Shown: positions 20,588-59,578, counted from the stretch's first letter. The stretch: 64,000 bases of DNA from an uncultured Acidobacteriota bacterium (GCA_963828935.1 CAWHGP010000005.1:359100-423099); one strand, 5' to 3'. Numbers and translations: made by a program. The notes: generated by a model not told the origin, from the sequence alone.

Positions 20588-20884
20588 TGACCTGATCGGC
20601 TTGAATTAGTCCAGCGGGAGTGAGAGAAAATCACTCTAAAGGAGAGAGTTGGACGCCGATGAAGAAGTATAAGCCGGAGCAGATCGTGAATCTACTGCGG
20701 CAGGTCGAAGTGAAAATCGAGAACGGAAAAACCACACCGCAAGCCTGTAAGGAAGCGGAGACCACCCAGCAGACTTACTACCGCTGGAGAAAAGAATTCG
20801 GCGGCCTAAAGCTGGATCAAGCGAAACGGATGAAGGAACTAGAACGGGAGAACCCGAAGCTGAAGGGTTTAGCAGCAGAGCTGT
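20588..20884 (+). mobile_element. Left-end fragment (copy A) of a second IS3-family element
   Basis: Starts TGACCTGATCGGCTTGAATTAGTCCAGCGGGAG, as at 44403. Encodes orfA MKKYKPEQIVNLLRQVEVKIENGKTTPQACKEAETTQQTYYRWRKEFGGLKLDQAKRMKELERENPKLK, then homology stops. Confidence 0.8.
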
Positions 20885-21044
20885 GCGGGTTGGACCAATC
20901 GAACTTGGCGAAGGTACCCATCATGTCATGACAGGCTTTTACATTGAACCCCGCACCAAACGAGTAATGCGCAGATGAAGGAATCGCTAAAGCGAGAAGA
21001 GCGATCGCCGTTACTGCTGCCTTGCAGAGCCTATGTGCTACTTT
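20880..21044 (-). pseudogene. N-terminal fragment of a B-type (DUF6152-like) gene, truncated by the IS3 fragment
   Basis: The minus strand reads KVAHRLCKAAVTAIALLALAIPSSAHYSFGAGFN...GTFAKFDWSNPHS after a GGAGGG box. There is no intact start codon. It lies just downstream of TBDR1. Confidence 0.55.
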
Positions 21045-21166: not shown

Positions 21167-24100
21167 CTAGAACAAGAACTTCAAAGCAAACTGTATTACC
21201 CGTGGATTCACGGAAGTGGCATTGATCGATCCGAAAAGGTTTCCGCCGTGGTTTGTCCCGCCGTTTGTCGCGGTCATTTGCCGATCGGTCGGATCGCTGT
21301 CAGCCAGAAATGAAGCAAACTGCGGGTGGTTGAAGGCATTAAAGAACTCGGCTCGAAACTGGAGGTTCTTCATTTCGCGAATCTTGATTATTTTCTCGAA
21401 GGCCATGTCCCAGTTATTCTGGCCCGGGCCCAGAATCGCACCTTCCGCCATCGTGCCAAAACCCGTTCCATTTCCGATTGTTGGCGCCGGACAAAAAGCT
21501 GCAGAGTTCAGCCAGCCGTCCCCGGTTAACCCATTTGTTATCCGCTGAATGGTGCTGCCCGTTGTAACTGCAGTCTTAGCCGTAAACCCCGGGCACAGAG
21601 TAGCGTTGCCGCCCTTGGCCCCGAATATGGACCCGGCCGTACTGTCGCTCAAATCGAGTGGTTGGCCGTCCTGAAGGATCACCACACCCGACCAGTCCCA
21701 ACCCTCCGTCACCTTTCCTAGAAAACCCTTCTCATGGCCCAGAGGCAGTTGCCAAACGTAGTTCACCACCAGACGCTGCGGGCGGACGAAGTATTCTGGC
21801 GCATAAGACTGCACGAGGTAGGGGTAAACGTTGATGCCCTGAGGATACTGCTCGAGGCCTTTGGCCCAGGTGTAGCCTGCCTGCAACTGCAGCCCCTTAG
21901 AAAGCTGCTTCCGCAATGTCACTTGGAGGCTGTTGTATTTGTAATTGCTATTCGTTTGGTCGTACGTAGCCGTGGGGCTTACTCCTAAGTACGGAACGCG
22001 GAGGATCGCGTTTTGGGTCGTATTCTTGCCACCAAGAGCAGTGGCGATGGCAGGGATCGAGCAACTTACGCACGGCGCACCAACTCCGACCAGCTGTGCG
22101 TAATTGAAGGGGTTTCCAGTCGGTGATCCGTCCGCACCTATTGCAGTGTTCGCTGCGCCTGGAGAGGCCTGATGTATGCCCTTCGACCCCACGTAACCGA
22201 CTTCCAATACCCAGCTGGGCCGAAACTCATACTGAACGTTCAGATTCCATTGGTAGGTCAGCGGGACCGTCATGTTGGGATCGAACATCGTAGTGGCGGT
22301 GCTCGAACTGCAAGGAGGTCCGGGACAGAACGCCGCAGGATTCGTCGAAACAGTCGATATATCCACCCAGCGAGGAACAAATCCGAAATTGCCGTTACCG
22401 GCCGAAACCAGCCCAGGGCTAATAGCATACGGATCGTACAGACTCGCAATCGGCGAATTGCTGGTGGGGACTCCGTGGGCCGGATTCGAGAGATCGAACC
22501 GGGCGATATCGTGGCCGCCCAACACGTTATAGAAGTACCCGGCACCGGCGCGCAGGACCAAGTGGTTGCTGGACGTCGGTTGCCAGGCAAACCCGATTCG
22601 GGGGGCAAAATTGTCCCAGGGGGCGCCTTTTTCCTCGGCGTAGGGCAGGGGGCTTTGATACACCCCCGTCGGAACGAGGCCGGTGTACGTGCTGGGCACC
22701 ATAATCCCCGCAAGACTCTCCCCCACTCCGCCTGGAACCGTGACGAAGGGGGGCGGCGCTGCGTTCGCCAAACTCGGCCAGAAGTTACTCAGATTCCCGT
22801 TATTCTCGGTGGGGTATTGGTCCAACTCCCACCGCAGTCCCAAATTCAGGGTGAACCGCGGGGTCACCTTAATATCGTCCTGAAGAAAAATGCTTAGCTG
22901 AAAGACACGGATATTCGTTTCGATAAGGCCGTTCGCGGCCGACGAACCTCCTGCCCCCGTAACGTTAGCCTTACCGCTCGTGGAGCCGTTGCATCCAGCG
23001 GGATTCACCGCGGATGGAGTCGTTACGATGGGAAGCCCCGTGACGGGGTCCGAGCCGCAAGCCGACCGACCGATCAGGAAGTCAGCAAACGTTGGGAATG
23101 ACGGCGTTCCCAACGATGAGCTCTGGTTTAGGAAACCATTCTGCACACGATCGTCTTCGACGCCTGCCCGGAACGTGTGCTTGCCGCGGGTCCAGGAAAA
23201 CTGGTCGGCGATCACAAATTGATTCTCACGAACGTTGGTGCTGCCGTAACCGTGATGGTATCCGAACGACATATTTCCGTTGCCGTTACCCGAAATGGTA
23301 AATAGTGGCAAATCGGAGACCGTAGCTGCAGGGGTGAATGGCGAGACGAAGGGCTGGAGACCCACTTGCTGGTCGGTGAAGAGAATGTCCTGGCTGGCGA
23401 TCGCTTGATCTCGCTGGTACCCGGCGCGGAATTCATTCACCGCGTTATTGGACACCGTCGTAGTAAGTTTCGCGACAGTGCTTTGGTTTACTTTACTTTC
23501 GGTAAAAGGGGTACCTGGCAAAAAGTCGCCCGCCTCCTGGGAATTCGTCGCTTCGAAATTGCCAGTCAGCGGGTTCGATTCGTACATGTACCGGCCGGAG
23601 AAGGTGTTCTTGCTGTTAATCACATAATCAACGTTACCGATGCCCTGATGATCCTTTGAGAGCGCCGGATCCACGAAGTTCTGACTCACAAAAGATGAGG
23701 TGCCCGATCCGGGAACCAAATAGCTGCCATTGGGCAGCGCGAGCTGTAGCACATTGATCGCTATGGGATTAAGGCCAAACAAGCCCGACGGATCGCCGTG
23801 GCCCGCCGATGGACATGTGATCACTTGGAGCCCGTTCTTTGGCGCGTGGGTGCACATGTTCTGCGCCAGTGATGTCACGAAAGCTGCACCGGCTGCATTG
23901 CATGACGCAATCGTGTACCACGGTACCGGCCCGCACGTACCACGGCTGCCAGAGGCATTCTGGGTAATCGGAGGTAAAACGGTGCCTTGTGTTTTGCTGA
24001 ACGCGGCGTACCCATTGGTCTGATCATTTTCCTCATAGGATGTGAAAAAGAAAAGTTTATCCTTCTTCACCGGGCCGCCGAGCGTCCCGCCATATATATT

Positions 24101-25042
24101 TGAATTTAGCGTCGGCCTCGCCACGCCTTCCTGGTTCAGGAAAAAGTCGTTAGCATTGAGAGCAGTATTTCGGAAGAACTCATACACGTCACCGTGGAAG
24201 TTATTGGTGCCGGACTTAGTCACCACGTTCACGTTGGCGCCAGGATTCCGACCGTATCCGGCATCGTAGCTTGAGGTTTGGATCTTGAATTCGGCAATCG
24301 AGTCTGGATTGGGCATCGCAAACGAGCCAAACTGCTGTCCCTCCGACACACCGCCCACAGAATCATAATTATTGACGGTCACCCCGTCCTGGGAATAGGT
24401 GTTCTGGCCTGTGGTGGCCCCATTGACGGCCATGTTCGTTGCGCCCTTGCCAAGCGTGGTGGCGTTGCTGACGTTACCAGAGACACCCGTAGAGAAAGCC
24501 AAGAGGTTCGTGTAGTTCCGGGTGTTCAGGGGGATTTCCGTCACGGTTCGCGCGGTAGCTACCGAGCCCAGGGCCGAACTGGTAGTCTGAAGTGTCTCAA
24601 CTTCACCTTGCACCGTGACCGACTGCGTTTGCGTACCCACCTGTAGCGCAACATCTAATACCGCCGTCTCCGTCACGCTGACCGTTGCGGATGGAATCTC
24701 AACCGTGCCGAATCCAGCTGCCTCAGCTTTCACCTGGTAGTTGCCCGGCGGCAGCAAACTAAACTTGTATGCGCCGTCCGCCCCTGTCATCGTGGTTCGC
24801 ATTTGGCCGGTGTCCACACTAATGGCGGTAACAGTTGCATTCGGAATTACGGCACCTGACGAGTCCTTAACCGTGCCTGCCAATGCCCCCGTCGACGCCG
24901 ACTGGGACAGCAGAGACGGCACCCACAGAACCGATACGAGAAAAACAACAAGCCAGCTGTTTTTCGACCTCATCGCGCACACCTCGCACCAAAGTTGAAC
25001 CGCCGCCCCAAGGTCGTGGAGACCCGTCACAAACCCCGACAA
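21167..25042 (-). CDS. TonB-dependent receptor with an N-terminal carboxypeptidase-regulatory-like domain (TBDR1)
   Basis: Signal peptide, then STGALAGTVKDSSGAVIPNATVTAISVDTGQ...GAYKFSLLPPGNYQVKAEAAGF. Plug-like region (LNTRNYTNLL, AVNGATTGQNTY). Long barrel ending NPRVIQFALKFLF. The likely true start is the ATG at 24973 (MRSKNSWLVV...). Confidence 0.9.
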   Translation of the reverse strand: MSGFVTGLHDLGAAVQLWCEVCAMRSKNSWLVVFLVSVLWVPSLLSQSASTGALAGTVKDSSGAVIPNATVTAISVDTGQMRTTMTGADGAYKFSLLPPGNYQVKAEAAGFGTVEIPSATVSVTETAVLDVALQVGTQTQSVTVQGEVETLQTTSSALGSVATARTVTEIPLNTRNYTNLLAFSTGVSGNVSNATTLGKGATNMAVNGATTGQNTYSQDGVTVNNYDSVGGVSEGQQFGSFAMPNPDSIAEFKIQTSSYDAGYGRNPGANVNVVTKSGTNNFHGDVYEFFRNTALNANDFFLNQEGVARPTLNSNIYGGTLGGPVKKDKLFFFTSYEENDQTNGYAAFSKTQGTVLPPITQNASGSRGTCGPVPWYTIASCNAAGAAFVTSLAQNMCTHAPKNGLQVITCPSAGHGDPSGLFGLNPIAINVLQLALPNGSYLVPGSGTSSFVSQNFVDPALSKDHQGIGNVDYVINSKNTFSGRYMYESNPLTGNFEATNSQEAGDFLPGTPFTESKVNQSTVAKLTTTVSNNAVNEFRAGYQRDQAIASQDILFTDQQVGLQPFVSPFTPAATVSDLPLFTISGNGNGNMSFGYHHGYGSTNVRENQFVIADQFSWTRGKHTFRAGVEDDRVQNGFLNQSSSLGTPSFPTFADFLIGRSACGSDPVTGLPIVTTPSAVNPAGCNGSTSGKANVTGAGGSSAANGLIETNIRVFQLSIFLQDDIKVTPRFTLNLGLRWELDQYPTENNGNLSNFWPSLANAAPPPFVTVPGGVGESLAGIMVPSTYTGLVPTGVYQSPLPYAEEKGAPWDNFAPRIGFAWQPTSSNHLVLRAGAGYFYNVLGGHDIARFDLSNPAHGVPTSNSPIASLYDPYAISPGLVSAGNGNFGFVPRWVDISTVSTNPAAFCPGPPCSSSTATTMFDPNMTVPLTYQWNLNVQYEFRPSWVLEVGYVGSKGIHQASPGAANTAIGADGSPTGNPFNYAQLVGVGAPCVSCSIPAIATALGGKNTTQNAILRVPYLGVSPTATYDQTNSNYKYNSLQVTLRKQLSKGLQLQAGYTWAKGLEQYPQGINVYPYLVQSYAPEYFVRPQRLVVNYVWQLPLGHEKGFLGKVTEGWDWSGVVILQDGQPLDLSDSTAGSIFGAKGGNATLCPGFTAKTAVTTGSTIQRITNGLTGDGWLNSAAFCPAPTIGNGTGFGTMAEGAILGPGQNNWDMAFEKIIKIREMKNLQFRAEFFNAFNHPQFASFLADSDPTDRQMTATNGGTNHGGNLFGSINATSVNPRVIQFALKFLF

Positions 25043-29275: not shown

Positions 29276-29351
29276 CGACCTATCGAGTGTCGGAGCGGCA
29301 TGCCTAACGGCCGCTGGGCAGTGGAGAGGGGAAGCAAATCAGAGCGCTAAC

Positions 29352-30218
29352 TTATTTGGCCGCTTCGTCTCCCGTACCCGCCGGTACGGCCAGTGTATCC
29401 CGATACTCGATGGCTTGCGATGGGACGCAGAAAACCTCCTGGAAATCTTGCGCCTTCATCCAGTAGTAATTCGCTTTCAAGAATACCCACGGCTTGGTGT
29501 AGAACTTCGGATCGTCCAGCGTGGCCGTCAACTGTATGGTGTATTGGTCCACGCGCGTGTAGCGCTCCTCGATGTGCGCGGTCTTGCTCTTCACGTGCCC
29601 GGCCTCGTCCAGCCAGGATCCCTCGTCCAGTCCCGTCGTTTCGATGACGAACGTGTAGTCCCCATCCCAGTGCCCTATCGAATATCCGTAAAATCTCGAA
29701 TCAGGGTACCCTTTGGCGTCGATGTTTTTGGGCAGTTCGCGCCCATCCATCCACACTTCCCGCCACACACGCTGGTGCTGCTTCAGAATGATCATCCGGT
29801 CCGCCACTGGCTCAAACCACATTCCTCCCCGGCTCTCGATCGCGTGATTAAACAGATCCCTCGGAAAACCGAGCGGATCACACGTCGCGAAGGGGTCATT
29901 GGTGGCCGCCAGACGCACCACAGACTCAGGCTTATTGAGCTTGAACCGCGCCTCGCCCGCGGGCGTCATCGGGGGCATCGGATCTCGCGTAGTCTTTATT
30001 GGTCCCGCCCAAGCGCCCGTTATATCCCGCTTGGGAGCAGGCCCGGGCGGGTTCGGCATCTTAGGAATTCCCGCGCCGACATACTCGTCGGCCTGCTGCA
30101 CGAAGCCTGTCGGGAACTGCTTCTTTGGCTGTTGCGGCTGTGTTTGCGCCACAACAGTCGATGAAAGCGCTACTACCGCAAAGAAAGCAGCGATTGTTTC
30201 AGCGACTCGATTTCGCAT
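29352..30218 (-). CDS. A-type exported protein (A1), uncharacterised family
   Basis: ATG at 30218 preceded by GGAGAAGGAAG. Signal peptide MRNRVAETIAAFFAVVALSSTVVAQ. Motifs: PAPKRDITGAW, CDPLGFPR, WMDGRELP, GYSIGHWDGDYTFVIETTG, EERYTRVD, DDPKFYTKPW, FCVPSQ. Confidence 0.8.
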   Translation of the reverse strand: MRNRVAETIAAFFAVVALSSTVVAQTQPQQPKKQFPTGFVQQADEYVGAGIPKMPNPPGPAPKRDITGAWAGPIKTTRDPMPPMTPAGEARFKLNKPESVVRLAATNDPFATCDPLGFPRDLFNHAIESRGGMWFEPVADRMIILKQHQRVWREVWMDGRELPKNIDAKGYPDSRFYGYSIGHWDGDYTFVIETTGLDEGSWLDEAGHVKSKTAHIEERYTRVDQYTIQLTATLDDPKFYTKPWVFLKANYYWMKAQDFQEVFCVPSQAIEYRDTLAVPAGTGDEAAK

Positions 30219-30344
30219 CTTCCTTCTCCTCTCCACCTAACACGGACCATTTGCCCAAGTCACACCTCCGAAAAGATCGGAGCCAAAATGCCTGCTCGTC
30301 TCTCCTCTCTGCGCTTCGGCTATCGCGTCTCGGCGACAGTTCCG

Positions 30345-30791
30345 CTATTTGGCGTTATAGCCGCTCGAATCCTTATCGGGTTTGTATGGGGCCTTCACAC
30401 CGTTTGCACCAAGCACAGTATCATGTAGCTCGGTCCCATCGGACAGCACGATCTTATTGAGGCGGCCGACCGGATTACCCGTTTTGCTGGGCCACACGTA
30501 GGCGTCAATCACGTCCCCAGGCGCCAAGGAACTCTTGCTCCAACCGATCAGCCCAACGTTCGTGGACGGGCCGGTTTCAACAACCCAATGCTTGACGGTC
30601 CCTTTGTCGTCCTTCGCATCCATATTAATCAGGCAATGAGGACTGGCCCATAAGAACTTCGTCACGGTTGCTTGCTTGAGCTCAACGAACTTGTCAGAGT
30701 AAGCCGCGCTTCCATGATGTGCCAGCGCGGAGCCACAAACACCGAGAAATCCGACACACAGCACGAACCGCACGAGCAACATGCTCTTCAT
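30345..30791 (-). CDS. B-type small exported protein (B1), DUF6152-like
   Basis: GAGGAGG box 6 nt before the ATG. Signal peptide ending SALA followed by HHGSAAY. Also WASPH, HWVVE, APGD. Confidence 0.8.
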   Translation of the reverse strand: MKSMLLVRFVLCVGFLGVCGSALAHHGSAAYSDKFVELKQATVTKFLWASPHCLINMDAKDDKGTVKHWVVETGPSTNVGLIGWSKSSLAPGDVIDAYVWPSKTGNPVGRLNKIVLSDGTELHDTVLGANGVKAPYKPDKDSSGYNAK

Positions 30792-30981
30792 TCGCTACCT
30801 CCTCGAAAAAGAATCTTCGCGATTGGTATTATCATACACTCATCCTCGTCCGCAAGTCAGACCGATATTCCTCACCTTCAACCTGATTGGCGCCTGGGTT
30901 CTGAATTTCGCTGGACCCTCCGAAGGCCAGATCGAATCTTGTATAGTATTGGGTGAGGGGGACGCAAATCAGAGTGCTAAC

Positions 30982-31848
30982 TTATTTGGCCGCTTCGTCT
31001 CCCGTACCCGCCGGTACGGCCAGTGTATCCCGATACTCGATGGCTTGCGATGGGACGCAGAAAACCTCCTGGAAATCTTGCGCCTTCATCCAGTAGTAAT
31101 TCGCTTTCAAGAATACCCACGGCTTGGTGTAGAACTTCGGATCGTCCAGCGTGGCCGTCAACTGTATGGTGTATTGGTCCACGCGCGTGTAGCGCTCCTC
31201 GATGTGCGCGGTCCTGCTCTTCACGTGCCCGGCCTCGTCCAGCCAGGATCCCTCGTCCAGTCCCGTCGTTTCGATGACGAACGTGTAGTCCCCATCCCAG
31301 TGCCCTATCGAATATCCGTAAAATCTCGAATCAGGGTACCCTTTGGCGTCGATGTTTTTGGGCAGTTCGCGCCCATCCATCCACACTTCCCGCCACACAC
31401 GCTGGTGCTGCTTCAGAATGATCATCCGGTCCGCCACTGGCTCGAACCACATTCCCCCCCGGCTCTCGATCGCGTGATTAAACAGATCCCTCGGAAAACC
31501 GAGCGGATCACACGTCGCGAAGGGGTCATTGGTGGCCGCCAGACGCACCACAGACTCAGGCTTATTGAGCTTGAACCGCGCCTCGCCCGCGGGCGTCATC
31601 GGGGGCATCGGATCTCGCGTAGTCTTTATTGGTCCCGCCCAAGCGCCCGTTATATCCCGCTTGGGAGCAGGCCCGGGCGGGTTCGGCATCTTAGGAATTC
31701 CCGCGCCGACATACTCGTCGGCCTGCTGCACGAAGCCTGTCGGGAACTGCTTCTTTGGCTGTTGCGGCTGTGTTTGCGCCACAACAGTCGATGAAAGCGC
31801 TACTACCGCAAAGAAAGCAGCGATTGTTTCAGCGACTCGATTTCGCAT
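30982..31848 (-). CDS. A-type exported protein (A2)
   Basis: Differs from A1 at a single residue within the predicted product (KSRTAH versus KSKTAH). Confidence 0.8.
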   Translation of the reverse strand: MRNRVAETIAAFFAVVALSSTVVAQTQPQQPKKQFPTGFVQQADEYVGAGIPKMPNPPGPAPKRDITGAWAGPIKTTRDPMPPMTPAGEARFKLNKPESVVRLAATNDPFATCDPLGFPRDLFNHAIESRGGMWFEPVADRMIILKQHQRVWREVWMDGRELPKNIDAKGYPDSRFYGYSIGHWDGDYTFVIETTGLDEGSWLDEAGHVKSRTAHIEERYTRVDQYTIQLTATLDDPKFYTKPWVFLKANYYWMKAQDFQEVFCVPSQAIEYRDTLAVPAGTGDEAAK

Positions 31849-31999
31849 CTTCCTTCTCCTCTGCACGTAACACGGGCGACATCACCCGACCCAATTGCCC
31901 AAGCCAGACCTTCCGAAAGATCGGAGCCAAAATGCCCGCTCGTCTCTCCCTCTCTGCGCTTCGGCTATCGCGTCTCGGCGACGGTTCCCCTATTTGCCG

Positions 32000-32464
32000 T
32001 TACTTGCTGTTCGAACCCGCATCGGGAGCGGATGTTGGCCCCTGGCCAGGAACGTTGTACCGGTTCTTCCCGGCGGCTCCACCAAGCTGCGTATCATGCA
32101 ACTCCGTCCCATCGGCCAGCACGAGCTTGTTGAGGCGGCCGACCGGGGCACCCGATTTGCTCGGATACACGTAAACGGTAGTTACGTCCCCAGGGGCGAT
32201 GGAAGTCTTGCTCCAACCGATGAGCCCAATATTCGTAGCCGGGCCCGTTTCAACAACCCAATGCTCGACGGTCCCTTTGTCGTTCTTGGCATCGAAATTG
32301 ATCAGGCAATGAGGACTCGCCCACATGAACTTCGTCACCGTTGCTTGCTTGAGTTCAATGAGCTTCTCCGAGTAAGCCGCGCTTCCATGATGTGCCAGCG
32401 CAGAGCCGCAAACACCGAGAAATCCAACACACAGCACGAACCGCACGAGCGACCTGCTCTTCAT
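32000..32464 (-). CDS. B-type small exported protein (B2), DUF6152-like
   Basis: Same leader and ALA|HHGSAAY as B1. About twenty substitutions in the core and an unrelated Gly/Pro/Ser-rich tail. Confidence 0.8.
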   Translation of the reverse strand: MKSRSLVRFVLCVGFLGVCGSALAHHGSAAYSEKLIELKQATVTKFMWASPHCLINFDAKNDKGTVEHWVVETGPATNIGLIGWSKTSIAPGDVTTVYVYPSKSGAPVGRLNKLVLADGTELHDTQLGGAAGKNRYNVPGQGPTSAPDAGSNSK

Positions 32465-32594: not shown

Positions 32595-33791
32595 TTATCT
32601 GTCTGTCCGCCAGCTCGGAATTGGCTTGCCGAACTTCGCGGTGTCAATCGCGACGTTCGCATGTAGCTCGCTCATGATCAGCGTCGAGCGGCCGTCCGTC
32701 CAGGTCACGACCCATTGATAGGGCATCTTCACCCCGTTCACGTCACGATAGTCCGAGAAATCTACCTGCGTCGGAACGACGCCCACGGGCGAATTCGAAT
32801 AACGAACGTAGCGCAGCAGAAGGCCCGAAGTCGAATCAAAGTACAACTTAACAGGAAGCCCCCCGGCTACCAATCTTCCCTGTATCACTTGCACTTCTTC
32901 TTTGGCCGTATCGATTTTCTCCGGAAACCCCACTCGCCAGTCGACCAATGACTCTTTGATCTTCATGGGAAAAGACACTATGGCGTCAAACTTCGCCCCG
33001 GCGAGATCGTCCCCAGTGAGCGGAATCAGAGGAAGCGGTCGCAGCGTTTGCGGAGCAGACAGCCAGCCCGCCCGCCCATCGTAAGCCCAGATGCTATCGC
33101 CGTCCGGCATGTGAGCAAACGTGGCACGCTGGTTCGGAGCCCTTGCATAGACGTCCACTGAAACCTTCTCCAACGCCGTTTCATATCCTTGGTAGGTGCC
33201 CTTCCCCGCGAAACTCGTCACAGCCGACGCGCGCTGTGCCCCACCGATGGCCTGGATATATTTGTTGAAGATAGGATCGACCGATGCGTCCCTGTTGGCC
33301 ACGATTTCATCCGGCTCAGTGTCCGGCATTTCGCTGTATTGAATCGCCAAATCGGGGATCACCCGCGGGTGCGTAGTACCCCGGTGGCACGTCCAGCAGG
33401 TCACCATGCGCTGCCCACTAAACGAAGTCCGGTTAATCGTCTGCACCAGAAGGATCATCATGCGCGCACGATTCTTGAGCGGTGTGTCGTCGGCATACTT
33501 AGCCCAATCGCTTCCGCTGTCTTCGGTATGGCAATCGGTGCAGTTCAGGCCGGTGGAGGCGGCGAAAAAACCCATCGTCTCCATGAATTCCTCCACCGGA
33601 ACGCCCTTGAGCAACTGAACATTCTTGAACACCTGCTCGACCAACTGTGGCTTCTGTTCCGTACCTGCGCCGGTTCCTTGGCCGCGCGCGATCACGCAGC
33701 CGAGCAGGCAAAATGCGGCCATTCCCGCAGCACGCAATATCACCCTGGAGACACTCGCATTCATCTCGCCCCGTCTCGCCATCTTCAACAC
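32595..33791 (-). CDS. D-type dihaem c-type cytochrome (photosynthetic-reaction-centre cytochrome-subunit-like N-domain plus ~250-aa C-terminal domain), D1
   Basis: FKNVQLLKGVPVEEFMETMGFFAASTGLNCTDCH ... MVTCWTCHRG (two CxxCH motifs). The C-terminal part looks like a LolA-like beta domain (YIQAIGG..., LYFDSTSGLLLRYV, DYRDVNGVKMPY). Confidence 0.8.
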   Translation of the reverse strand: MLKMARRGEMNASVSRVILRAAGMAAFCLLGCVIARGQGTGAGTEQKPQLVEQVFKNVQLLKGVPVEEFMETMGFFAASTGLNCTDCHTEDSGSDWAKYADDTPLKNRARMMILLVQTINRTSFSGQRMVTCWTCHRGTTHPRVIPDLAIQYSEMPDTEPDEIVANRDASVDPIFNKYIQAIGGAQRASAVTSFAGKGTYQGYETALEKVSVDVYARAPNQRATFAHMPDGDSIWAYDGRAGWLSAPQTLRPLPLIPLTGDDLAGAKFDAIVSFPMKIKESLVDWRVGFPEKIDTAKEEVQVIQGRLVAGGLPVKLYFDSTSGLLLRYVRYSNSPVGVVPTQVDFSDYRDVNGVKMPYQWVVTWTDGRSTLIMSELHANVAIDTAKFGKPIPSWRTDR

Positions 33792-34219: not shown

Positions 34220-37200
34220 TTAAAAGATGTATTTCAGGGCGATTTGAATGATGCGCGGAGCCACCACCTGGGTGCTGATTAACCCGAACGTCGACTGATT
34301 GGCGGCCGTGTTCGGCAAATTAAACTGTGGATGGTTAAACGCGTTGAAAAATTCGGCGCGGAACTGCAGCGACTGGCCTTCCCGGATGGCAATGAGTTTT
34401 GCCAGCGACATGTCCCAATTGTATTGGCCAGGTCCCAGCACGCTACCGCCAGCCACGTTGCCGAAGCCCGAAGCCGCTCCTGCGGGAGCGGTCTGGTTGG
34501 GACCGAGCGGGACGAACGCACTGCCATTCCAATAGGGAGCATTGCACAGCACCCCTTGGGTCTTGCTGTTAAAATAACCCACACCGCTAGAGCTTCCGAC
34601 CGGAATGCCCAGCAATCCGCTGGAGACGCGATCTTCTATGCTCCCTGTAGTTAGCAAATTGGCCGCCGTCATCCCCGGACAAAATGTCGCGTTCGAGCCC
34701 GAGCCGGTGCCGCCGAAGAATACCGATCCGCCATTATCCGTTACGGTCAGCGGCAGGCCGCCCTGTCTCGTGGTTACGCCGGACCACGTCCAATCGTCAA
34801 CCAAACGACCTACGAGCCCCTTGTAACGGGGGACAGGCAAATTCCAGACATAGTTAATCACAAAGCGGTTCGGATGGTAGTTGCTATTCGGCTCATACAC
34901 TTGAGCAAGATAGGGGTAGGTGTTGAACCCTTCCGTCTGGGTATCGAGAGCCTGGGCATAGGTGAAGTCGGCTTGCAAGGTTAATCCGTAGGATATCTGC
35001 TTACGAACCGTAAATTGTACCCCATTGTATTTGAGCAGGCCGTTGTACGTGAATTGCGAAGCAGTCGGACTTACACCCAGGTAAGGCACGCGCTCAATCA
35101 CATTCGCCGCAGTGCTTGTGGTCACTCCGGTGAGCGCGCAACTGGAACAGTGCCCATCGGTTGCGAGAGGCGCGAGGTTGAAACCAATCTCAGAACCTCC
35201 CTGTCCTTGATGCCCATCAAATGAGGAGCGGGTTTGAGGCAGCTGATCGATGCCATGAGACCCGACGTAAGCGACCTCCAGCACCCAGTTGTGCAAAAAC
35301 TCATACTGGGTGTTGAGATTCCACTGGTACATCAGAGGAACCTTCAAACCCGGCCCGACGCCCGATGAAGTTAGGTTCGAACTGCAAGGAGGCGCGGGGC
35401 ATACCACGGGTATCGGGGTCGATACGTCGAGCCACCGAGTGACCCATCCAGCAGTGCCCTGCGGTCCGGGATAAACGGCCGGCCCGAACTGAAAGGGTTG
35501 TGCCAGAGTGGCGAGTGTATTTGGACTAGCGTTGGGTATCAATCCGGGCTGGGAGATCTCGAGCACATTCATGAATGACTGTCCTGGCGTGGCATCATAG
35601 AAAAAGCCGCCGCCGCCACGCATAACCCAACGAGCGCTTTTCGTGGGTTGCCAGGCGAACCCGAGACGCGGAGCAAAATCGTCTTTAGGGGAGTTGGGAT
35701 TGGTCAGCCCATCATTACTGTTCACAAAAACACCCGGCGGGACGGGGCCCGGGTAATTGGCCGGTACCACAAATCCAGCCAGGGTGCCCGTCTGCGGCGT
35801 GCTGCCCGGAAGCGCCACCGTTCCCGCCAAGCTGGGCCAGATGCTGCTCATTAGGCCCCGGCCTTCGTAGATGTTGCCGTCGTATTCCCACCGGAGTCCG
35901 GCGTTCACCGTTAAACGCGGGGCTAACTTGTAGTCATCCTGAACAAAACCACTCAGCACGTTGAGGCGGAAATAATTGGAGAATAGGCCATTTTCACTGC
36001 CTCCTCCGCCACTGCTACTGGTTGAAAAACCATTGGTGTTGCCGGGATTGTTGGGCCCGCAGACGCCAACTCCGGTGAAAGCCTGACACGATGCCCTGCC
36101 GATCAGGAAATCGGCAAGCGAGTTGAATGACGCCGACGGCACCGCATGCCCTGGGAAGGAAGTCCTCACCTGCACGTGCCAAGCACCTACGCCAAACCGA
36201 AGCGAGTGATCTCCGTGTTGCCAGGAAATCTGCTCGTTGGCTTGGAATTGGTTAACTATATCGTTCACACCGAAACTAGTGTTGGCCCCGAAACTAAACC
36301 CCGGAGTGGTAATGGACGCGAGTTGATCGTATCCCGGCACCAAATCCGCGATGCCCACCTGCGAATTCGTGAAGGGAGTTAGATCCGAGCTCACCGTCGA
36401 GATGCGCTGGTAGGCGACATTTGCTTGGTTCACCACATTCGTGGATAAAACCGAGGTAAGTTTCAGGATAGCTTGTTGGTTGTCGTGAGTGATCTGCACA
36501 CCATTCCCAGGCAGATACACACCAACCGGAGAGTTGGAATCGTTGGACGGGAAACCCCCGGAAATAGGATCTTTTTCGTACTGATAACGGGCGGCGAGGG
36601 TTTCCTTGCTATTGATCACGTAATCCCAATTGTTCAAGAAGTTGTGATCGCGAAATGTGGCAGGATCCGCAAACCCCTCGCTCGCGAAAGCTGCGCTGGC
36701 CCCCGAGCCGACGCCCGAGCCGGGAATCATATATTGGCCGTTGGGGAACCGAAGTTGCAAAATACTGATGGCCACAGGATTCATGTTCGCCAGCGGGGCG
36801 GCCGGGCTCAACGCGCACTGCACCTGGATGGTGGTATTCGTGGCGGCACTGGTTTGGAAATTCTTAACCGTACCGGCCGGTTTATTGCCGGGGCACATGT
36901 TGGCCGCCAAATCCGTTACGAACTTTGTTGTCGCCGCGCTGCACTGGGCCAGCGTGGTCCAACCGGCGGGACAGGTGCCGCGGTCTTCCAGCGGAATCGG
37001 AGGTAACGTGGCTACTGACTGGCCGAATGCCGAAATACCGTTCGTCTGGCGGGTTTCCTGATAAGAGGCGAAGAAGAAGAGCTTATCTTTCTTGACTGGT
37101 CCGCCGAATGTGCCCCCGAACTGATTGGAGTTCAAAACCCCTCTCGGCTCACCTAAAACGTTGTTGATAAAACTATTCGCATTTAGTGCGGTGTTGCGGA

Positions 37201-38050
37201 AGAATTCAAACGCGTCTCCATGGAAGTTATTCGTGCCTGTTTTGGTGATCACGTTGACGCTCGCGCCGGGATTGCGCCCGTAGCCCGCGTCGGCGCTCGA
37301 GGTTTGGACCTTGAATTCTTGAATGGAATCGGGATTGGGAAGCACGAAAGTGCCGCCTGAAAAGGACTCCTGACCGGTGTTGAAGCTCAAATAGGAAGTG
37401 ACATCGACGCCGTCTTGTGAAAAATTATTTTGAGAAAAGCCCGCGCCATTTACGGCAATGTAGGTAACGCCCTTCCCAATCTGGCTGGCGTTTGGGGCGT
37501 TGGAGTTGGCTCCCGCAGACATCGACAAGAGGCTTGTGTAGTTGCGGGTGTTCAGGGGCAGCTCCGCCACCGTTCTGTTGGTCAGCACTTGCCCCATTGC
37601 CGAACTGGTGGTCTGAATGTTCTCTACCGAACCTTCCACCGTAACCGTCTGCGCCGTGGCACCCACCTCGAGAGCCCGGTCCATCGCTTCCGTCTCCGTA
37701 ACCAATACGGTTAGGGAAGGAATCTCGACGGCTTTGAATCCGTTGGCCTCAATTCTTAGCCGGTAATTGCCCGGTGGCAGCAAACTGAATTTGTACGTGC
37801 CGTCCGCCTCAGTCATCGTGGTTCGTGTCTGGCTGGTATCCACGCTTGTAGCCGTGACTGTGGCGTTCGGCACCGCGGCGCCGGAAGCATCGGTAATTCT
37901 TCCGGTCAACGCGCCCGTCGACGCCGTCTGGGCCATGAGGGTTGTTCCGGAAAACAAGACAATAAGGATGAGAACCACACACAGGCGCTTACACCCCATA
38001 GTGTCCCCCTTTGGGGAGATAGAAGAATCGGAACGGCTCGCGTTCCGCAT
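34220..38050 (-). CDS. TonB-dependent receptor with an N-terminal carboxypeptidase-regulatory-like domain (TBDR2)
   Basis: STGALTGRITDASGAAVPNATVTATSVDTSQ...GTYKFSLLPPGNYRLRIEANGF, plug motifs, and a barrel ending APRIIQIALKYIF. Paralogous to TBDR1 throughout. The likely start is the ATG at 37999 (MGCKRLCVV...). Confidence 0.9.
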   Translation of the reverse strand: MRNASRSDSSISPKGDTMGCKRLCVVLILIVLFSGTTLMAQTASTGALTGRITDASGAAVPNATVTATSVDTSQTRTTMTEADGTYKFSLLPPGNYRLRIEANGFKAVEIPSLTVLVTETEAMDRALEVGATAQTVTVEGSVENIQTTSSAMGQVLTNRTVAELPLNTRNYTSLLSMSAGANSNAPNASQIGKGVTYIAVNGAGFSQNNFSQDGVDVTSYLSFNTGQESFSGGTFVLPNPDSIQEFKVQTSSADAGYGRNPGASVNVITKTGTNNFHGDAFEFFRNTALNANSFINNVLGEPRGVLNSNQFGGTFGGPVKKDKLFFFASYQETRQTNGISAFGQSVATLPPIPLEDRGTCPAGWTTLAQCSAATTKFVTDLAANMCPGNKPAGTVKNFQTSAATNTTIQVQCALSPAAPLANMNPVAISILQLRFPNGQYMIPGSGVGSGASAAFASEGFADPATFRDHNFLNNWDYVINSKETLAARYQYEKDPISGGFPSNDSNSPVGVYLPGNGVQITHDNQQAILKLTSVLSTNVVNQANVAYQRISTVSSDLTPFTNSQVGIADLVPGYDQLASITTPGFSFGANTSFGVNDIVNQFQANEQISWQHGDHSLRFGVGAWHVQVRTSFPGHAVPSASFNSLADFLIGRASCQAFTGVGVCGPNNPGNTNGFSTSSSGGGGSENGLFSNYFRLNVLSGFVQDDYKLAPRLTVNAGLRWEYDGNIYEGRGLMSSIWPSLAGTVALPGSTPQTGTLAGFVVPANYPGPVPPGVFVNSNDGLTNPNSPKDDFAPRLGFAWQPTKSARWVMRGGGGFFYDATPGQSFMNVLEISQPGLIPNASPNTLATLAQPFQFGPAVYPGPQGTAGWVTRWLDVSTPIPVVCPAPPCSSNLTSSGVGPGLKVPLMYQWNLNTQYEFLHNWVLEVAYVGSHGIDQLPQTRSSFDGHQGQGGSEIGFNLAPLATDGHCSSCALTGVTTSTAANVIERVPYLGVSPTASQFTYNGLLKYNGVQFTVRKQISYGLTLQADFTYAQALDTQTEGFNTYPYLAQVYEPNSNYHPNRFVINYVWNLPVPRYKGLVGRLVDDWTWSGVTTRQGGLPLTVTDNGGSVFFGGTGSGSNATFCPGMTAANLLTTGSIEDRVSSGLLGIPVGSSSGVGYFNSKTQGVLCNAPYWNGSAFVPLGPNQTAPAGAASGFGNVAGGSVLGPGQYNWDMSLAKLIAIREGQSLQFRAEFFNAFNHPQFNLPNTAANQSTFGLISTQVVAPRIIQIALKYIF

Positions 38051-38774: not shown

Positions 38775-39736
38775 CTACTTGTTTTCGGGGTTCGGCTTCA
38801 CGGCCGGGGCTTCCTTGGTGTTTACGCCAACTACTTTATTATATTCCGCGTTTTCTGACGGCACACAGAAATTTTCTCTGATATCGAAATCGGGGGGCTG
38901 CAGGTAGAGAACGAGCTTATTTTGAGTCATCCACGGTTCCGTATACATCTGCGGGTCGTTAATAATCACCGTGTGTTCCATTCTGTCATTGTCCAACCGG
39001 TGAAATATTTCCGTAACCCGCACATCCTTGCTGTGCGGACGGCCGGCATGATCGATCCAGCTTTTTCATTCAGTCCGACCGTTTCGGACACGAAAGTGTA
39101 ATCGTCCATCCAGTGGCCAACAGAGTACCCGTTATATCGTGGTTTGGGATTCTTGGGGAGTTCTCGCCCGTCCGTCCAAATGGTGCGCCAATCGTGATTC
39201 ATTTCAGTCAAGAAAAGCACATGGTTCTTCGTCTGAACCAGCTGGAACGTCCTAAACTCAAAACTCTCCGTGTACGGGAACCCTACCGGCTCACAGCTGT
39301 CATATGGATCATTTGCGAGGAAGGAAGGGACTGATCTGATTGATGTTCCCGACGGCTTATGGGACTCAAGGGTTTTCTCTCCCAACGGCGTGTAAGGTAT
39401 GGGATGTGGAATACCATTCTCGTTAGGTTGCCCTGACCGAGGCCTAGGATCTCCTTGGGCGAACATAGCTGGATGTTCAGCCACGCCACCTGCCTGGACT
39501 CCCCCTGACTCTGTGGCATCCCAAATGCCAGAGAGGTCACGGCGCGGAGCGGGACCTGCCTTTCCCTTGTTACGGGCCGGATTGTCCCTCCCATTTCCAT
39601 TGAACGGGTCACTATTCCACTTGTCGCGCTTCGCCTCTGCTGACTGCGTTGGCGTGGCGGTTTGAGCGCGCAGAATCGGTGAGGACCTAAATACTGCAAG
39701 CAAGGCAATCGCCGCGAACACGAAGCGCTTTGGCAT
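38775..39736 (-). pseudogene. A-type exported protein (A3) with a single frameshift
   Basis: MPKRFVFAAIALLAVFRSSPILRAQ..., GPAPRRDLSGIW, CEPVGFPY, WTDGRELP, GYSVGHWMDDYTFVSETVGLNEK. The frame is lost at the T5/A5 run 39062-39066. The shifted frame continues SWIDHAGRPHSKDVRVTEIFHRLDNDRMEHTVIINDPQMYTEPW...FCVPSE (ORF 38775..39023). Confidence 0.8.
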
Positions 39737-39852
39737 TTGCGAAATCCTCCAACGTTCCGATTCCAACTTGCGATTGAGCTTCCGAATACTACACGCAAGC
39801 AACACACCGAGCCTGGCCTGGGCTCGGACCACTAGTGGTTGCGGCACTCACG

Positions 39853-40269
39853 CTAACCATTCGGAGAGCGACCGGCTGCGCCTCCGCCGGTGAACTCTCG
39901 ACCATTGATTACGATATGGCTGCCGGCAAAACGTCCGAGCGGGTTGGTCGCAGACTGGTTCTTGTAGGGAGTCACGTCAACAACCACTTCATCCCCGGGT
40001 TTGAACATAGCTTTGCTCCAGCCTTGGTTGGCCACGCTCGCTGTGCCTGCGGATTCTATAATCCAATGCGCCGTCTCACCGCTGTCGGTCTTCTCATCGA
40101 GCTTCAGGAAGCAGTGGGGATTAGCCCAAAACCACTGCGTGACCGTTCCCTTCACCGTCACTTTTTTCGAGGTGTCGTACACCGCGGCCCCGTGGTGTGC
40201 GAACAACGGAACGGAAACCGCCAACAGGCCCACCACCACCAGGGAAAAGACCGTAAGTTTGGTTCTCAA
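39853..40269 (-). CDS. B-type small exported protein (B3), DUF6152-like
   Basis: Signal ...VSVPLFA followed by HHGAAVY. Also WANPH, HWIIE, KPGD. Confidence 0.8.
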   Translation of the reverse strand: MRTKLTVFSLVVVGLLAVSVPLFAHHGAAVYDTSKKVTVKGTVTQWFWANPHCFLKLDEKTDSGETAHWIIESAGTASVANQGWSKAMFKPGDEVVVDVTPYKNQSATNPLGRFAGSHIVINGREFTGGGAAGRSPNG

Positions 40270-40416: not shown

Positions 40417-41340
40417 CTATTTGTCCGCCGTCACATTATCAAGTAGCTTCTTGTACTCCGGTATCGCCGATGGGGAGCAAAATGATTCCCCCACGTCGAA
40501 GTCGTCCGGCAAACGATGGAGGACGAACTTGTTTAAGGCCTGCCAAGGCTGCTTATAGTATTCGGGGTCGTCAATGGTGAGCGTGAGCTCCAAAGTGTCA
40601 GAATCCACGCGGTGGTATCGTTCCTCCACTCGCATATTGGCGGTGTGTGGACGGCCAGCATTATCAAGCCAAGTCCTCTCATCCATCCCATCCGTCTGGA
40701 CCACAAAAGTGTAATCGTCCACCCAGCGGCCCACTGAATACCCGTTCCACCTCGGTTCGGCACCACTTTTAACATCCGGAAGCGCTCGGCCATCGGTCCA
40801 GATGACGCGCCAAGCGTAAAAAGGTTGATACACGGCAATCACCTGGTTCGCCGTCTGTTCGAACTCGACTACTCTAAATTGGGAAAGGGCCATTCGGGGA
40901 AACCCCACTGGGTCACAGATGCCTACCGGATCATTTTGCTGGCCGGGGCGAACTCCTCTGGCTCCTGCTGCCGGTTTATTGGCTTTAAGCGCTGCCAGCC
41001 CCGCAGGCGTGTACGTTAAGGGACGCGCAACATTCCTCTCGTCCGCTTGTCCTCCGAGTTCACCCACCGGGTGACCCGGTACCAGTGCCGGGTGCTCCAG
41101 CGCCCCCGTTGCCTGGGCTCCCCCCTCGGCTTCCCCATTCCAAAATCCCGACAAATCACGGCGTGGAGCGGGACCCTTCGTGATCCCAGCGTACGCGGCC
41201 TTCTGCGGTGGGGCATCATCCCACGGTGGCATGGCCTTGGCTTCCGCGCCTTTGGCCGGCGCGGTTTGTGCGCCCAGAAAGGGCAAGAAGCCTGATAGTG
41301 CAACTAGTACTACCGCCGAGACTAAAAAGCGCCTTGGCAT
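40417..41340 (-). CDS. A-type exported protein (A4)
   Basis: GGGGAG box before the ATG at 41340. MPRRFLVSAVVLVALSGFLPFLGAQ, GPAPRRDLSGFW, CDPVGFPR, WTDGRALP, GYSVGRWVDDYTFVVQTDG, EERYHRVD, DDPEYYKQPW, FCSPSA. Confidence 0.8.
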   Translation of the reverse strand: MPRRFLVSAVVLVALSGFLPFLGAQTAPAKGAEAKAMPPWDDAPPQKAAYAGITKGPAPRRDLSGFWNGEAEGGAQATGALEHPALVPGHPVGELGGQADERNVARPLTYTPAGLAALKANKPAAGARGVRPGQQNDPVGICDPVGFPRMALSQFRVVEFEQTANQVIAVYQPFYAWRVIWTDGRALPDVKSGAEPRWNGYSVGRWVDDYTFVVQTDGMDERTWLDNAGRPHTANMRVEERYHRVDSDTLELTLTIDDPEYYKQPWQALNKFVLHRLPDDFDVGESFCSPSAIPEYKKLLDNVTADK

Positions 41341-41457
41341 TTCCAACTCCCCTGACAACTTAATCGATCCAGCTCTTCGGATTCGGCCCCGTGGTCTTTC
41401 GCGTAGAATCGTATTCCGCCGTGAGGAATGGTGAGCCCATGCTCCAGCATCAGAATT

Positions 41458-46469: not shown

Positions 46470-47273
46470 TCAACGGACTTGGTCAGCGCGGCAGGGCGTA
46501 GGATCCCAGCCTTGGCCATCGGGAATCTTCTTAAAGTGGTTGGTAGTAGCATAGGGACCGGCCAGGTACTGCGAGTCCGTAATGATCGAACTAACTACTA
46601 GCCAGGAATTGCCGTCCGGCTCAGTAAAGGTATCGAAATATTCCTGCAGCGTGGCATTGGCGCTGTACGGTACACCGTTCTTCCGCAGGTAACCCGCTTT
46701 CATCTTCGTCGTAGTTGCCCCTAGATCCTTAGCGGGGCCCGGCAACCTTCCCCCACGCCCCATCGGCGCCCCCGCCCAAAAAGCCACCGAATAACCCTGC
46801 CAATCCGGCTGCGCCGCCGCCACCGCCTGTTGCGCCGCTGCCCCGTTTAGAAAATGAAGCAGCCGCTTCTGGGTCCCCGAGTCTGTGTCGATTTGCAAAG
46901 TATTATCATCGGCCCAATGAATGTGGAGCCGTCCCGGCACTCGCATAATCGCCGCCGCCCCGTACGCTCGGCACTCGTTCCCTGCGTCCTGGGCTGGAGT
47001 CCACATCCCCGCCAGCTGCCGCGCCTCCGCGTTCAATGGCAGCATCGAAAAATCACCCTTCGGCGGCATGAGCATTCGCAAATGCCAATGTTCAGTCACC
47101 GCTGACACCCAATACCCAGTGAAATCCTTCGGCGCGGAGGCTCGCGCCGTAGCGGCTGGCGCCGCTCCCCCGCGTCCACCTTGCTCCTGGGCCTTGGCCT
47201 CATCAGCCACCCCCAAACTAAGCGCCAGCACGGCAACAAATAGAAACAACACCGGTTTCCTCGTGCTTTTCAC
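46470..47273 (-). CDS. F-type exported protein (distant A/C relative), uncharacterised
   Basis: Signal peptide. APKDFTGYW, ECRAYGAAAIMRVPGRLHI, WQGYSVAFW, YLRKNGVPYSANATLQEYF, QYLAGPY, PTPC. Confidence 0.7.
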   Translation of the reverse strand: MKSTRKPVLFLFVAVLALSLGVADEAKAQEQGGRGGAAPAATARASAPKDFTGYWVSAVTEHWHLRMLMPPKGDFSMLPLNAEARQLAGMWTPAQDAGNECRAYGAAAIMRVPGRLHIHWADDNTLQIDTDSGTQKRLLHFLNGAAAQQAVAAAQPDWQGYSVAFWAGAPMGRGGRLPGPAKDLGATTTKMKAGYLRKNGVPYSANATLQEYFDTFTEPDGNSWLVVSSIITDSQYLAGPYATTNHFKKIPDGQGWDPTPCRADQVR

Positions 47274-47306: not shown

Positions 47307-47693
47307 TTACTGTACTCTTCCCTTCCACTCCCATCCGTCGCTCGGCCGCTTGATGCTTCCGATCAGCATCCGACGGGCAGCCCCGTCCCGCGCCGGTGAA
47401 CCCTGCACCTCAACATAGTCGCCCGGCTTCAGTGTTGTCCTGGTGATCGAATCCTTTGACAACTGACTTACCGAGCCCCACTCCAGCGCCCACGACGTTG
47501 TTGCTCCATCTGGCCCCTTTACATCGATCCTCATAAATGAATGCGGATTACGCCAAACCAATTCTGTGACAACCCCAGCTGTCTCGGTCTTTTTTGTGGA
47601 ATCATACTCCGCCGTGAATGAGTGGTGGGCCAAGGCGCGCCCCGCTCCACCCAGCATCATGACCGTTACCAACATCAGGATTCTGCTTTTCAT
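47307..47693 (-). CDS. B-type small exported protein (B4), DUF6152-like
   Basis: Signal ...GRALA followed by HHSFTAEYD. Also WRNPH, KPGD. Its start overlaps the MBL stop (ATGA at 47690-47693). Confidence 0.8.
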   Translation of the reverse strand: MKSRILMLVTVMMLGGAGRALAHHSFTAEYDSTKKTETAGVVTELVWRNPHSFMRIDVKGPDGATTSWALEWGSVSQLSKDSITRTTLKPGDYVEVQGSPARDGAARRMLIGSIKRPSDGWEWKGRVQ

Positions 47694-59478: not shown

Positions 59479-59578
59479 GCGAGGCGATGAGGTGTGTTTG
59501 AACGATGTGCTCCAATATAGAGTGGCCTACAATCTCAGACTGATGGAAAAGCTTAGAAACCCCAGGGGGATTGCCAAA

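Follow-up and report, generated by a model that had tools for sequence, protein, structure and literature searches.

A near-invariant His-His pair at the predicted mature N-terminus of DUF6152 proteins and a candidate metal site on a predicted OB-fold

In histidine-brace proteins, copper is chelated by the amino group and Nδ of an N-terminal histidine together with a second histidine; the amine can coordinate the metal only after cleavage of the signal peptide, and it prefers Cu(II) (PMC10952591). YcnI (DUF1775) binds Cu(II) via the amine and Nδ of His1, Glu50 and a cation-π contact with Trp (PMC8424229). Here we analysed a window of 64,000 nucleotides, the whole stretch of DNA under study, from an uncultured Acidobacteriota bacterium (GCA_963828935.1 CAWHGP010000005.1:359100-423099), and in it the gene B1 (30345..30791, minus strand) with its paralogues, which encode DUF6152 proteins whose predicted mature N-terminus is His-His (HH). 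An earlier reading made from the sequence alone had proposed for them a metal site of the histidine-brace type, formed by these two histidines and the histidine of a downstream W-x-(N/S)-P-H motif. Our results indicated that a mononuclear site, most likely for copper, made from the unmasked N-terminus with His28 and Glu48 (mature B1 numbering) is the best explanation of the conserved residues, with a rough probability of 0.45.

Judged by analogy, YcnI/DUF1775 is the closest precedent in logic for DUF6152. Like DUF6152, it was a domain of unknown function with an invariant His as residue 1 after signal-peptide cleavage and with conserved Glu and Trp residues; it is also extracytoplasmic and has been proposed to work with membrane partners (PMC8424229). 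The two differ in that the fold of YcnI is cupredoxin-like whereas that of DUF6152 is predicted to be an oligonucleotide/oligosaccharide-binding (OB) fold, in that CopC/CopD genes adjoin those of YcnI but not those of DUF6152, and in that DUF6152 adds to His1 both His2 and another invariant His downstream. With the canonical brace proteins, namely the lytic polysaccharide monooxygenases (LPMOs; AA9-AA17), CopC, PmoB/AmoB and X325/Bim1 (PMC10952591), DUF6152 shares a location outside the cytoplasm, a His1 that would be unmasked by removal of the signal peptide, and further invariant His, of which His2 and His28 are, from their conservation, candidates for an N3 T-shaped site. These proteins are β-sandwiches, in contrast to the OB-fold predicted for DUF6152, and Foldseek found no similarity of fold, nor was there any of sequence. 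By analogy, DUF6152 may work like a histidine-brace or mono-histidine-brace protein.

A near-invariant His-His pair at the predicted mature N-terminus

The B-type open reading frames (ORFs), by which we mean the DUF6152 ORFs B1 to B5, were located by a six-frame motif scan and alignment, and their codon coordinates were verified. These copies, the motifs of B1 and one broken copy were placed as follows:

30345..30791, minus strand: B1, DUF6152, 148 aa (PF19649, E 2.3e-17); the ORF named in the sequence-only reading
30720..30791, minus strand: predicted Sec signal peptide of B1, MKSMLLVRFVLCVGFLGVCGSALA, with a K/R n-region, a hydrophobic core and A-L-A at -3 to -1
30714..30719, minus strand: His25-His26 of B1, numbered His1-His2 in the predicted mature protein, from the motif scan and family conservation
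30636..30650, minus strand: W-A-S-P-H of B1 (mature W24 to H28), in the loop between strand 1 and strand 2, boundaries from the AlphaFold2 model
30576..30590, minus strand: H-W-V-V-E of B1 (mature H44, W45, E48), in predicted strand 3
30513..30521, minus strand: P-G-D turn of B1, immediately before predicted strand 4, from the alignment
32000..32464, minus strand: B2, DUF6152, 154 aa; HH at 32387-32392, WASPH at 32309-32323
39853..40269, minus strand: B3, DUF6152, 138 aa; HH at 40192-40197, WANPH at 40114-40128
47307..47693, minus strand: B4, DUF6152, 128 aa; HH at 47622-47627, WRNPH at 47541-47555
59098..59478, plus strand: B5, DUF6152; HH at 59167-59172, WANPH at 59236-59250; the ATG at 59098 is the likely start, the listed ORF beginning at 59020
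20880..21044, minus strand: broken B copy, with SSA before HYSF and then WSNPHS, after which the similarity is gone

The assignment to DUF6152, made earlier from the sequence alone, was borne out for the five intact copies, since B1 to B5 scored 63.3, 68.7, 100.1, 92.7 and 97.2 bits against PF19649, above its gathering threshold of 27 bits, with E-values from 2e-17 to 8e-29. Scans of the five proteins against Pfam and NCBIfam gave no NCBIfam model and no Pfam family beyond DUF6152. All five had the same layout, which consisted of a K/R n-region, a hydrophobic core, ALA or LFA directly followed by HH, the W-x-(N/S)-P-H motif 22 residues on, and PGD further downstream. B2 was 75% identical to B1 and the other paralogues only 30-36%, yet HH, W, PH, HW..E and PGD were invariant in the alignment of the five, and this pattern was confirmed to be more than chance.

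The A-x-A-type site that the sequence-only reading had placed directly before HH in B1-B5 was recovered by the scan and alignment and held family-wide, and its reading of the broken copy as SSA before HYSF agreed with the motif scan. W-x-(N/S)-P-H was found in every copy as it had claimed, but Asn is the rule in the family (95-98%) and Ser is confined to the B1/B2 clade; similarly, PGD was present downstream in all five copies but is less conserved across the family (P 0.66, G 0.93, D 0.81). W45 and E48 of the H-W-x-x-E motif, which are as invariant as the motifs it described, had been overlooked.

DUF6152 is abundant in soil Acidobacteriota and also occurs in Alpha- and Betaproteobacteria. 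With B3 as query, an exhaustive search (E <= 1e-3) yielded 8,395 clusters at 50% identity, the 150 best representatives of which made up the representative set; the pooled set contained 645 unique DUF6152 sequences, and weighted conservation and mean-field direct coupling analysis (DCA) were based on 613 sequences with an effective number (Neff) of 202. HH was located 18-32 residues upstream of W-x-x-P-H in 635 of the 645 unique sequences. In this pooled set, Ala occupied position -1 in 619/634 and L, A or V position -3 in 600, and a hydrophobic core lay ahead of HH in 99.8%. Among the 150 representatives, the conservation was 93% for Ala(-1), 84% for Pro(-4) and 98% each for His1 and His2, 98%, 100% and 99% for the Asn, Pro and His of WxNPH, and 99% and 96% for Trp69 and Glu72 (B1 precursor numbering). 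The weighted frequencies, in mature numbering, were.98 for H1,.98 for H2,.99 for H28,.97 for E48,.98 for W45,.90 for W24,.95 for N26 and 1.0 for P27, with H44 at 63%. The invariant columns of the 149-sequence alignment headed by mature B1 were H1, H2, W24, P27, H28, W45, E48 and G68, and the Gly of PGD was conserved at 93-94%. The near-invariance of His1, His2 and the NPH histidine (98-99%) expected by the sequence-only reading therefore extended across the DUF6152 homologues.

The cleavage site was judged by the (-3,-1)-rule heuristic and family conservation. The rule permits a site before HH in all five copies, as had been proposed, but that site is not unique under the rule. On this heuristic, with a rule-compatible site and conservation combined, His would be mature residue 1 with a free α-amine. 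Lipoprotein processing of B1 and B2 at Cys19, which would bury HH, was rejected because position -1 is Val, so that there is no lipobox, and because the Cys is not conserved. In all 103 sequences with long N-terminal extensions, the 24-mer right before HH was still signal-peptide-like, and by this sequence signature the extensions appear to be over-called starts; no case of an internal HH occurred among the extended sequences checked.

Natural fusions of the family gave the same picture. P0197 (340 aa) and P0208 (356 aa) are B-A fusions, with a signal peptide and AHH-DUF6152 followed by a domain of the A-type partner family treated below (A-type hidden Markov model (HMM), E 2e-13 and 2e-12, respectively), and in both the B domain, hence HH, is kept at the N-terminus. 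In P0174, two DUF6152 domains stand in tandem, and the internal second one is without HH and retains W-x-D-P-H, Trp and Glu. Both kinds of fusion would be expected of an HH that serves its purpose solely at a free N-terminus, P0174 being a single case. The signal-like segment that always precedes HH, the fusions and P0174 thus fit with a requirement for a free α-amine, and the sequences of the family consistently place an almost unvarying HH at the exposed N-terminus.

Predicted fold and the candidate metal site

The AlphaFold2 model of mature B1, built with 149 homologues, had a mean predicted local distance difference test score (pLDDT) of 83.5 and a predicted template modelling score (pTM) of 0.75. 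It showed the OB-fold topology β1-β2-β3-helix-β4-β5, with strand 1 at residues 12-23, strand 2 at 29-36, strand 3 at 42-49, the helix at 52-58, strand 4 at 70-78 and strand 5 at 84-91, followed by a disordered C-terminal tail. Foldseek against the PDB retrieved generic OB folds only, among them the lysyl-tRNA synthetase anticodon domain, SSB and PriB, with a best E of 6.6e-3 and TM of ~0.45-0.5; the top 50 matches consisted of SSB, PriB, aminoacyl-tRNA synthetase OB domains and one staphylococcal enterotoxin B complex, and no LPMO, CopC, YcnI or CusF was among the matches. Searches of the PDB by sequence, with a single sequence and with a profile of the B-type proteins, gave chance-level matches only (E >= 0.17). 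The fold of DUF6152 as modelled is an OB-fold and other than the β-sandwich of LPMO, CopC and YcnI, which does not support this part of the comparison made in the sequence-only reading.

In the model, H28 opens strand 2, whose start is paired with strand 3; W45 and E48 are located at the end of the latter. DCA recovered the register of the strand 2-strand 3 hairpin (D34-H44, M33-V47) and the strand 1-strand 2 ladder. Since H28 and E48 belong to the same hairpin, whose register was recovered by DCA, they are expected to be neighbours at the canonical ligand-binding end of the OB fold. DCA was uninformative on the invariant columns themselves, which cannot covary. The only strong N-terminal pair, S8-S26, was not relied on, as it reflected essentially one clade-level change and fitted strand geometry poorly.

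The predicted small periplasmic OB-fold, with Trp beside a candidate metal-binding His on strands 2-3, is a likeness to the Cu(I)/Ag(I) chaperone CusF, whose His-rich N-terminal stretch NEHHHE was aligned to the HHG of DUF6152 by hhalign in an alignment that was not significant. In contrast to CusF, DUF6152 is without Met ligands and without a cusCBA context; of the features of a CusF-type chaperone, the OB fold was present in prediction, and the His/Met/Met/Trp Cu(I) site and the homology were absent.

Two N-terminal peptide motifs bind Cu(II), the amino-terminal copper and nickel (ATCUN) motif NH2-X-X-His and the motif NH2-X-His, as in Gly-His-Lys. The NH2-His-His of DUF6152 fits the latter, with a His at position 2. 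At mature position 3, 80% of sequences have Gly and 15% have Ser, and His is absent there, so that DUF6152 has no ATCUN motif, and unlike in these peptides the motif sits on a folded domain with further invariant residues.

An invariant HH together with a third His, a Glu and two Trp residues is a metal-ligand signature, and with the precedents of the histidine brace and YcnI it favours a copper site. In the arrangement we propose, Sec signal peptidase I would cut after the conserved Ala, so that His-His become residues 1 and 2 of a small periplasmic OB domain. The α-amine and imidazole of His1, and/or His2, would then join the invariant His28 and Glu48 in one mononuclear metal site, which Trp24 and Trp45 would adjoin on the face of the OB barrel normally used for ligand binding. 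The metal would most likely be Cu(II), as judged from the Irving-Williams series and from the analogy to CopC, YcnI and LPMOs, and the site would be competent only once the signal peptide has been removed. A single site built from the conserved residues, its binding of a metal, the identity of this metal as copper and a role in either metal hand-over or redox catalysis are our inferences.

A-type partners and the gene neighbourhood

The A-type proteins are uncharacterised secreted proteins of ~290 aa, one of which follows each B gene in the window. All of those in the window, even the divergent proteins of 317 and 267 aa on either side of the pair of B4 and a metallo-β-lactamase (MBL) fold protein, belong to one family; no Pfam family and no PDB sequence match was found for them. 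Their genes are:

29352..30236, minus strand: A1, A-type, directly downstream of B1
30982..31866, minus strand: A2, A-type, downstream of B2; 99% identical to A1
38826..39847, minus strand: A3, A-type, downstream of B3; frameshift near 39060
40417..41358, minus strand: additional A-type paralogue
46470..47273, minus strand: divergent A-type protein, 267 aa, downstream of B4
48724..49677, minus strand: divergent A-type protein of 317 aa, which opens the 317aa-MBL-B4-A module
57758..58684, plus strand: A-type paralogue, upstream of B5
59492..60505, plus strand: A5, A-type, downstream of B5

Synteny was examined in 85 loci of other genomes, mostly Acidobacteriota metagenome-assembled genomes, which contained 135 B genes. 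An A gene lay directly downstream on the same strand for 95 of these, with a median gap of 53 bp, and the A-type HMM also matched alphaproteobacterial neighbours at 2e-30 and 5e-24. Synteny and the B-A fusions together establish, at the level of sequence, that B and A are linked. Among the residues that the A-type family conserves are a pair of Cys and a number of Arg, Asp and Glu, with no His, Met or free Cys. The AlphaFold2 model of the A-type protein, built from the 8 window sequences, was poor (pLDDT 54.8); its best Foldseek matches were calycin barrels (CRABP/FABP; E 6e-4), and a calycin-like fold is tentative because of the low confidence of the model. The B1-A1 and B2-A2 pairs form a tandem duplication (29328-32464) with a period of ~1630 nt, in which the A genes are 99% identical, against 82% (DNA) and 75% (protein) for the B genes. 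This contrast points to gene conversion at A, or else to a B gene that diverged faster or was replaced.

The linkage of B to A also bears on an explanation we regard as unlikely, in which HH is no metal ligand and the free segment HHG-x-A-x-Y-D, as a docking element or a catalytic acid/base, inserts into the A-type partner or the OB groove, while His28 and Glu48 bind an organic ligand imported via a TonB-dependent receptor. Synteny and fusion tie B and A obligately, the Arg, Asp and Glu of the A-type family, which has no conserved His, Met or free Cys, suit an organic ligand, and the loci are catabolic or uptake-like and highly paralogous; in addition, the conserved residues of B would lie on the canonical OB ligand-binding face according to their strand positions, and the internal domain of P0174 retains H28, W and E without HH. 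However, an adjacent His pair with a third His and a Glu, all conserved above 97%, is a typical metal-ligand signature, and a docking peptide would normally allow conservative substitutions, none of which was seen. We are also aware of no secreted protein in which an invariant N-terminal His-His serves a purpose other than metal binding.

TonB-dependent receptors, DUF6644 membrane proteins, c-type cytochromes (CytoC_RC-like) and MBL-fold proteins recurred as neighbours of the B-A pairs, together with a secreted glyoxalase/vicinal oxygen chelate (VOC) protein, amidohydrolases and PEBP. In the window, the operon order is TonB-dependent receptor, cytochrome c, B2, A2, B1, A1, and the neighbouring genes are:

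34220..38050, minus strand: TonB-dependent-receptor-like protein with OMP_b-brl_4 and CarboxypepD_reg domains, which heads the B2-A2-B1-A1 operon
21167..25042, minus strand: second TonB-dependent-receptor-like protein, immediately upstream of the broken B copy
32595..33791, minus strand: c-type cytochrome with a CytoC_RC-like domain, between the TonB-dependent receptor and B2
47690..48727, minus strand: MBL-fold protein, 345 aa, directly upstream of B4 (PF00753, E 2e-12)
60693-61166 and 61201-61740, plus strand: two DUF6644 genes (PF20349), downstream of B5-A5
61817-62326 and 62654-63604, minus strand: two more DUF6644-type genes

The cytochrome at 32595-33791 has a paralogue at 56346-57608, also on the minus strand; the two proteins are ~400 aa long and 46% identical, both adjoin B/A genes, and both consist of an N-terminal CytoC_RC-like haem domain and a C-terminal domain of ~250 aa, a type found in 8 of the 85 loci. 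The four-gene module at 46470-49677 (minus strand), composed of the 317-aa A-type protein, the MBL protein, B4 and the 267-aa A-type protein, has its order kept in Vicinamibacterales (loci L004-L006). Four DUF6644 genes are clustered after B5-A5 in the window, and DUF6152-DUF6644 adjacency was also observed in Paracoccus, Achromobacter, Sphingobium and Novosphingobium (plasmids). In Paracoccus and Achromobacter, B stands alone and is followed by a DUF6644-type membrane protein, and in Paracoccus versutus the DUF6152 and DUF6644 genes make up a two-gene operon; Sphingobium has A-B-A-B with two DUF6644 genes and a TonB-dependent receptor, Croceibacterium has B-B-A with a TonB-dependent receptor, and Novosphingobium has A-B with two DUF6644 genes. 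DUF6644 proteins have one invariant His in the first helix, one per four-helix unit, and the units are often paired; apart from their own family, the only Pfam match was a weak one to DUF2214 (E 0.038).

Under the proposal of a copper site, B would work as a unit with the neighbouring ~290-aa A-type protein, possibly a calycin-like β-barrel, and the B-A pair would act at a periplasmic step downstream of TonB-dependent receptors, in many cases together with c-type cytochromes and DUF6644 inner-membrane proteins. The same neighbours raise the idea of a haem- or tetrapyrrole-binding shuttle that acts with the TonB-dependent receptor and uses His, and Tyr7, as axial ligands, which we consider highly improbable. 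Receptors and c-type cytochromes do recur beside B, position 7 is Tyr or Phe in 94% of sequences, and the partner may be calycin-like if its low-confidence model is correct, the calycin fold being used by some haemophores. Position 7 is Phe in 30%, however, and therefore cannot hold an essential ligand; neighbouring His-His cannot both serve as axial ligands, the strict N-terminal placement would be left unexplained, and no haem-uptake or haem-degradation genes were seen among the neighbours.

Other features of the window were also noted. By an exact match to B1, it falls on contig_92506 (74,292 bp) of the ENA metagenome assembly ERZ25039470, and its closest relatives are metagenome-assembled genomes of Terriglobales/Acidobacteriota. 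A 970-aa protein with several CxxCH motifs and matches to cytochrome c, cbb3 and MtrC-like domains is encoded at 50312-53224 (minus strand) and is adjoined by an amidohydrolase at 53236-55200. Decayed copies were found at 41476-43408 (minus strand), 25494-25885 (plus strand) and 44132-44403 (plus strand), comprising remnants of the MBL/317-aa module, an A-type remnant and an N-terminal fragment of a TonB-dependent receptor; the frameshifted stretch of A3 spans 38826-39736 (minus strand). Insertion sequence (IS) genes or fragments lie among the paralogues at 17435-18496 (minus strand), 28287-28796 (minus strand), 29084-29350 (plus strand) and 44769-45413 (plus strand), their types being IS630-like DDE_3 transposase and pieces of IS3-family rve integrase. 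In a closely related contig (L095), an IS21 element stands at the position of A1.

The copper reading and its meaning for the family

Several observations weigh against a copper site. The confidence of the model was lower where the site would form (residues 1-10, mean pLDDT of only 68), the OB-fold is unlike that of every known histidine-brace protein, and a set of three His and one Glu could accommodate Zn, Fe or Ni no less than Cu. H28 and E48 persist where HH is missing, in the second domain of P0174, so that these residues may have an HH-independent role. Homology to known copper proteins was also rejected, with hhalign probabilities of 0.5% against E. coli CopC (YobA) and 5.6%, not significant, against CusF. 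Phmmer searches with E. coli queries found no homologues of CopC, CopD or CusF in the window or the 85 loci, and copper genes were absent from the 30 commonest neighbour clusters. The notion that DUF6644 is a relative of CopD, which would have implied a CopC/CopD-like logic, was likewise rejected, as hhalign gave 0.35% with YebZ and 0.18% with a profile of four CopD sequences. Finally, B occurs five times in the 64-kb window, and as many as four copies per 16 kb were found elsewhere; a chaperone of metal homeostasis is not usually expanded to this extent, and the pattern looks more like that of loci for substrate-diversified uptake or catabolism.

More broadly, no gene of the CopA, CopC, CopD, CusF or multicopper-oxidase type was found among the neighbours, a single CusB-like match (locus L018) being unrelated to B-A pairs. 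DUF6152 does not belong with LPMO, CopC (PF04234) or YcnI, since fold and sequence homology were both negative, and the CopD-family membrane neighbour that marks the CopC-CopD and YcnI-YcnJ import pairs was not present. The histidine-brace idea of the sequence-only reading therefore survives in part: the exposed N-terminus and the near-invariant His1, His2 and NPH His speak for it, but the fold is a different one, and neither CopC/CusF homology nor copper neighbours accompany it.

Some of these points would be accounted for if the N-terminal HH, His28 and Glu48 formed the same site for another metal, Zn(II), Ni(II) or Fe(II), with three His and one carboxylate, in a periplasmic metallochaperone or a non-haem iron/zinc enzyme subunit; this too we hold to be unlikely. 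The conserved ligand-type set is His/His/His/Glu without a conserved Met or Cys, copper genes were not found nearby, and the neighbours include hydrolase and dioxygenase folds of Zn or Fe type (MBL, amidohydrolase, glyoxalase/VOC). N-terminal His-containing motifs also occur in ZinT-type zinc proteins and in nickel superoxide dismutase (Ni-SOD). On the other hand, many paralogues per genome speak against a simple Zn or Ni chaperone too, the amine/imidazole chelate of an N-terminal His favours Cu(II) over other divalent ions, and the characterised secreted proteins with an invariant His1 cited in PMC10952591 all bind copper.

If the site of DUF6152 binds copper, it would extend histidine-brace-type sites to a completely different fold, represent convergent evolution of a device in which removal of a signal peptide unmasks a copper chelate, and provide a new family for bioinorganic and enzymological study. 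Our literature search found no mention of DUF6152, PF19649 or DUF6644, and nothing in which 'histidine brace' was paired with 'OB-fold' or 'TonB-dependent'. A bolder version, which we regard as decidedly improbable, is that the DUF6152 and A-type pair is a previously unrecognised periplasmic copper enzyme. In it, an OB subunit with a brace-like Cu site (His1-His2, His28, Glu48) would be combined with a calycin-like substrate-binding subunit, electrons would come from the neighbouring c-type cytochromes or from DUF6644 proteins, which might hold haem b, and recalcitrant organic substrates delivered by the adjacent TonB-dependent receptors would be oxidised. If true, the histidine brace would have its first example on an OB fold, and the pair would represent a new class of oxidative enzymes, abundant in soil Acidobacteria and sphingomonads.

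For the families themselves, the B-A pairing and the natural fusions provide the first functional partner for the uncharacterised A-type family. Together with the linkage to TonB-dependent receptors and DUF6644, the pairing defines a four-component envelope module, which is a lead into the role of the greatly expanded TonB-dependent receptor loci in Acidobacteria.

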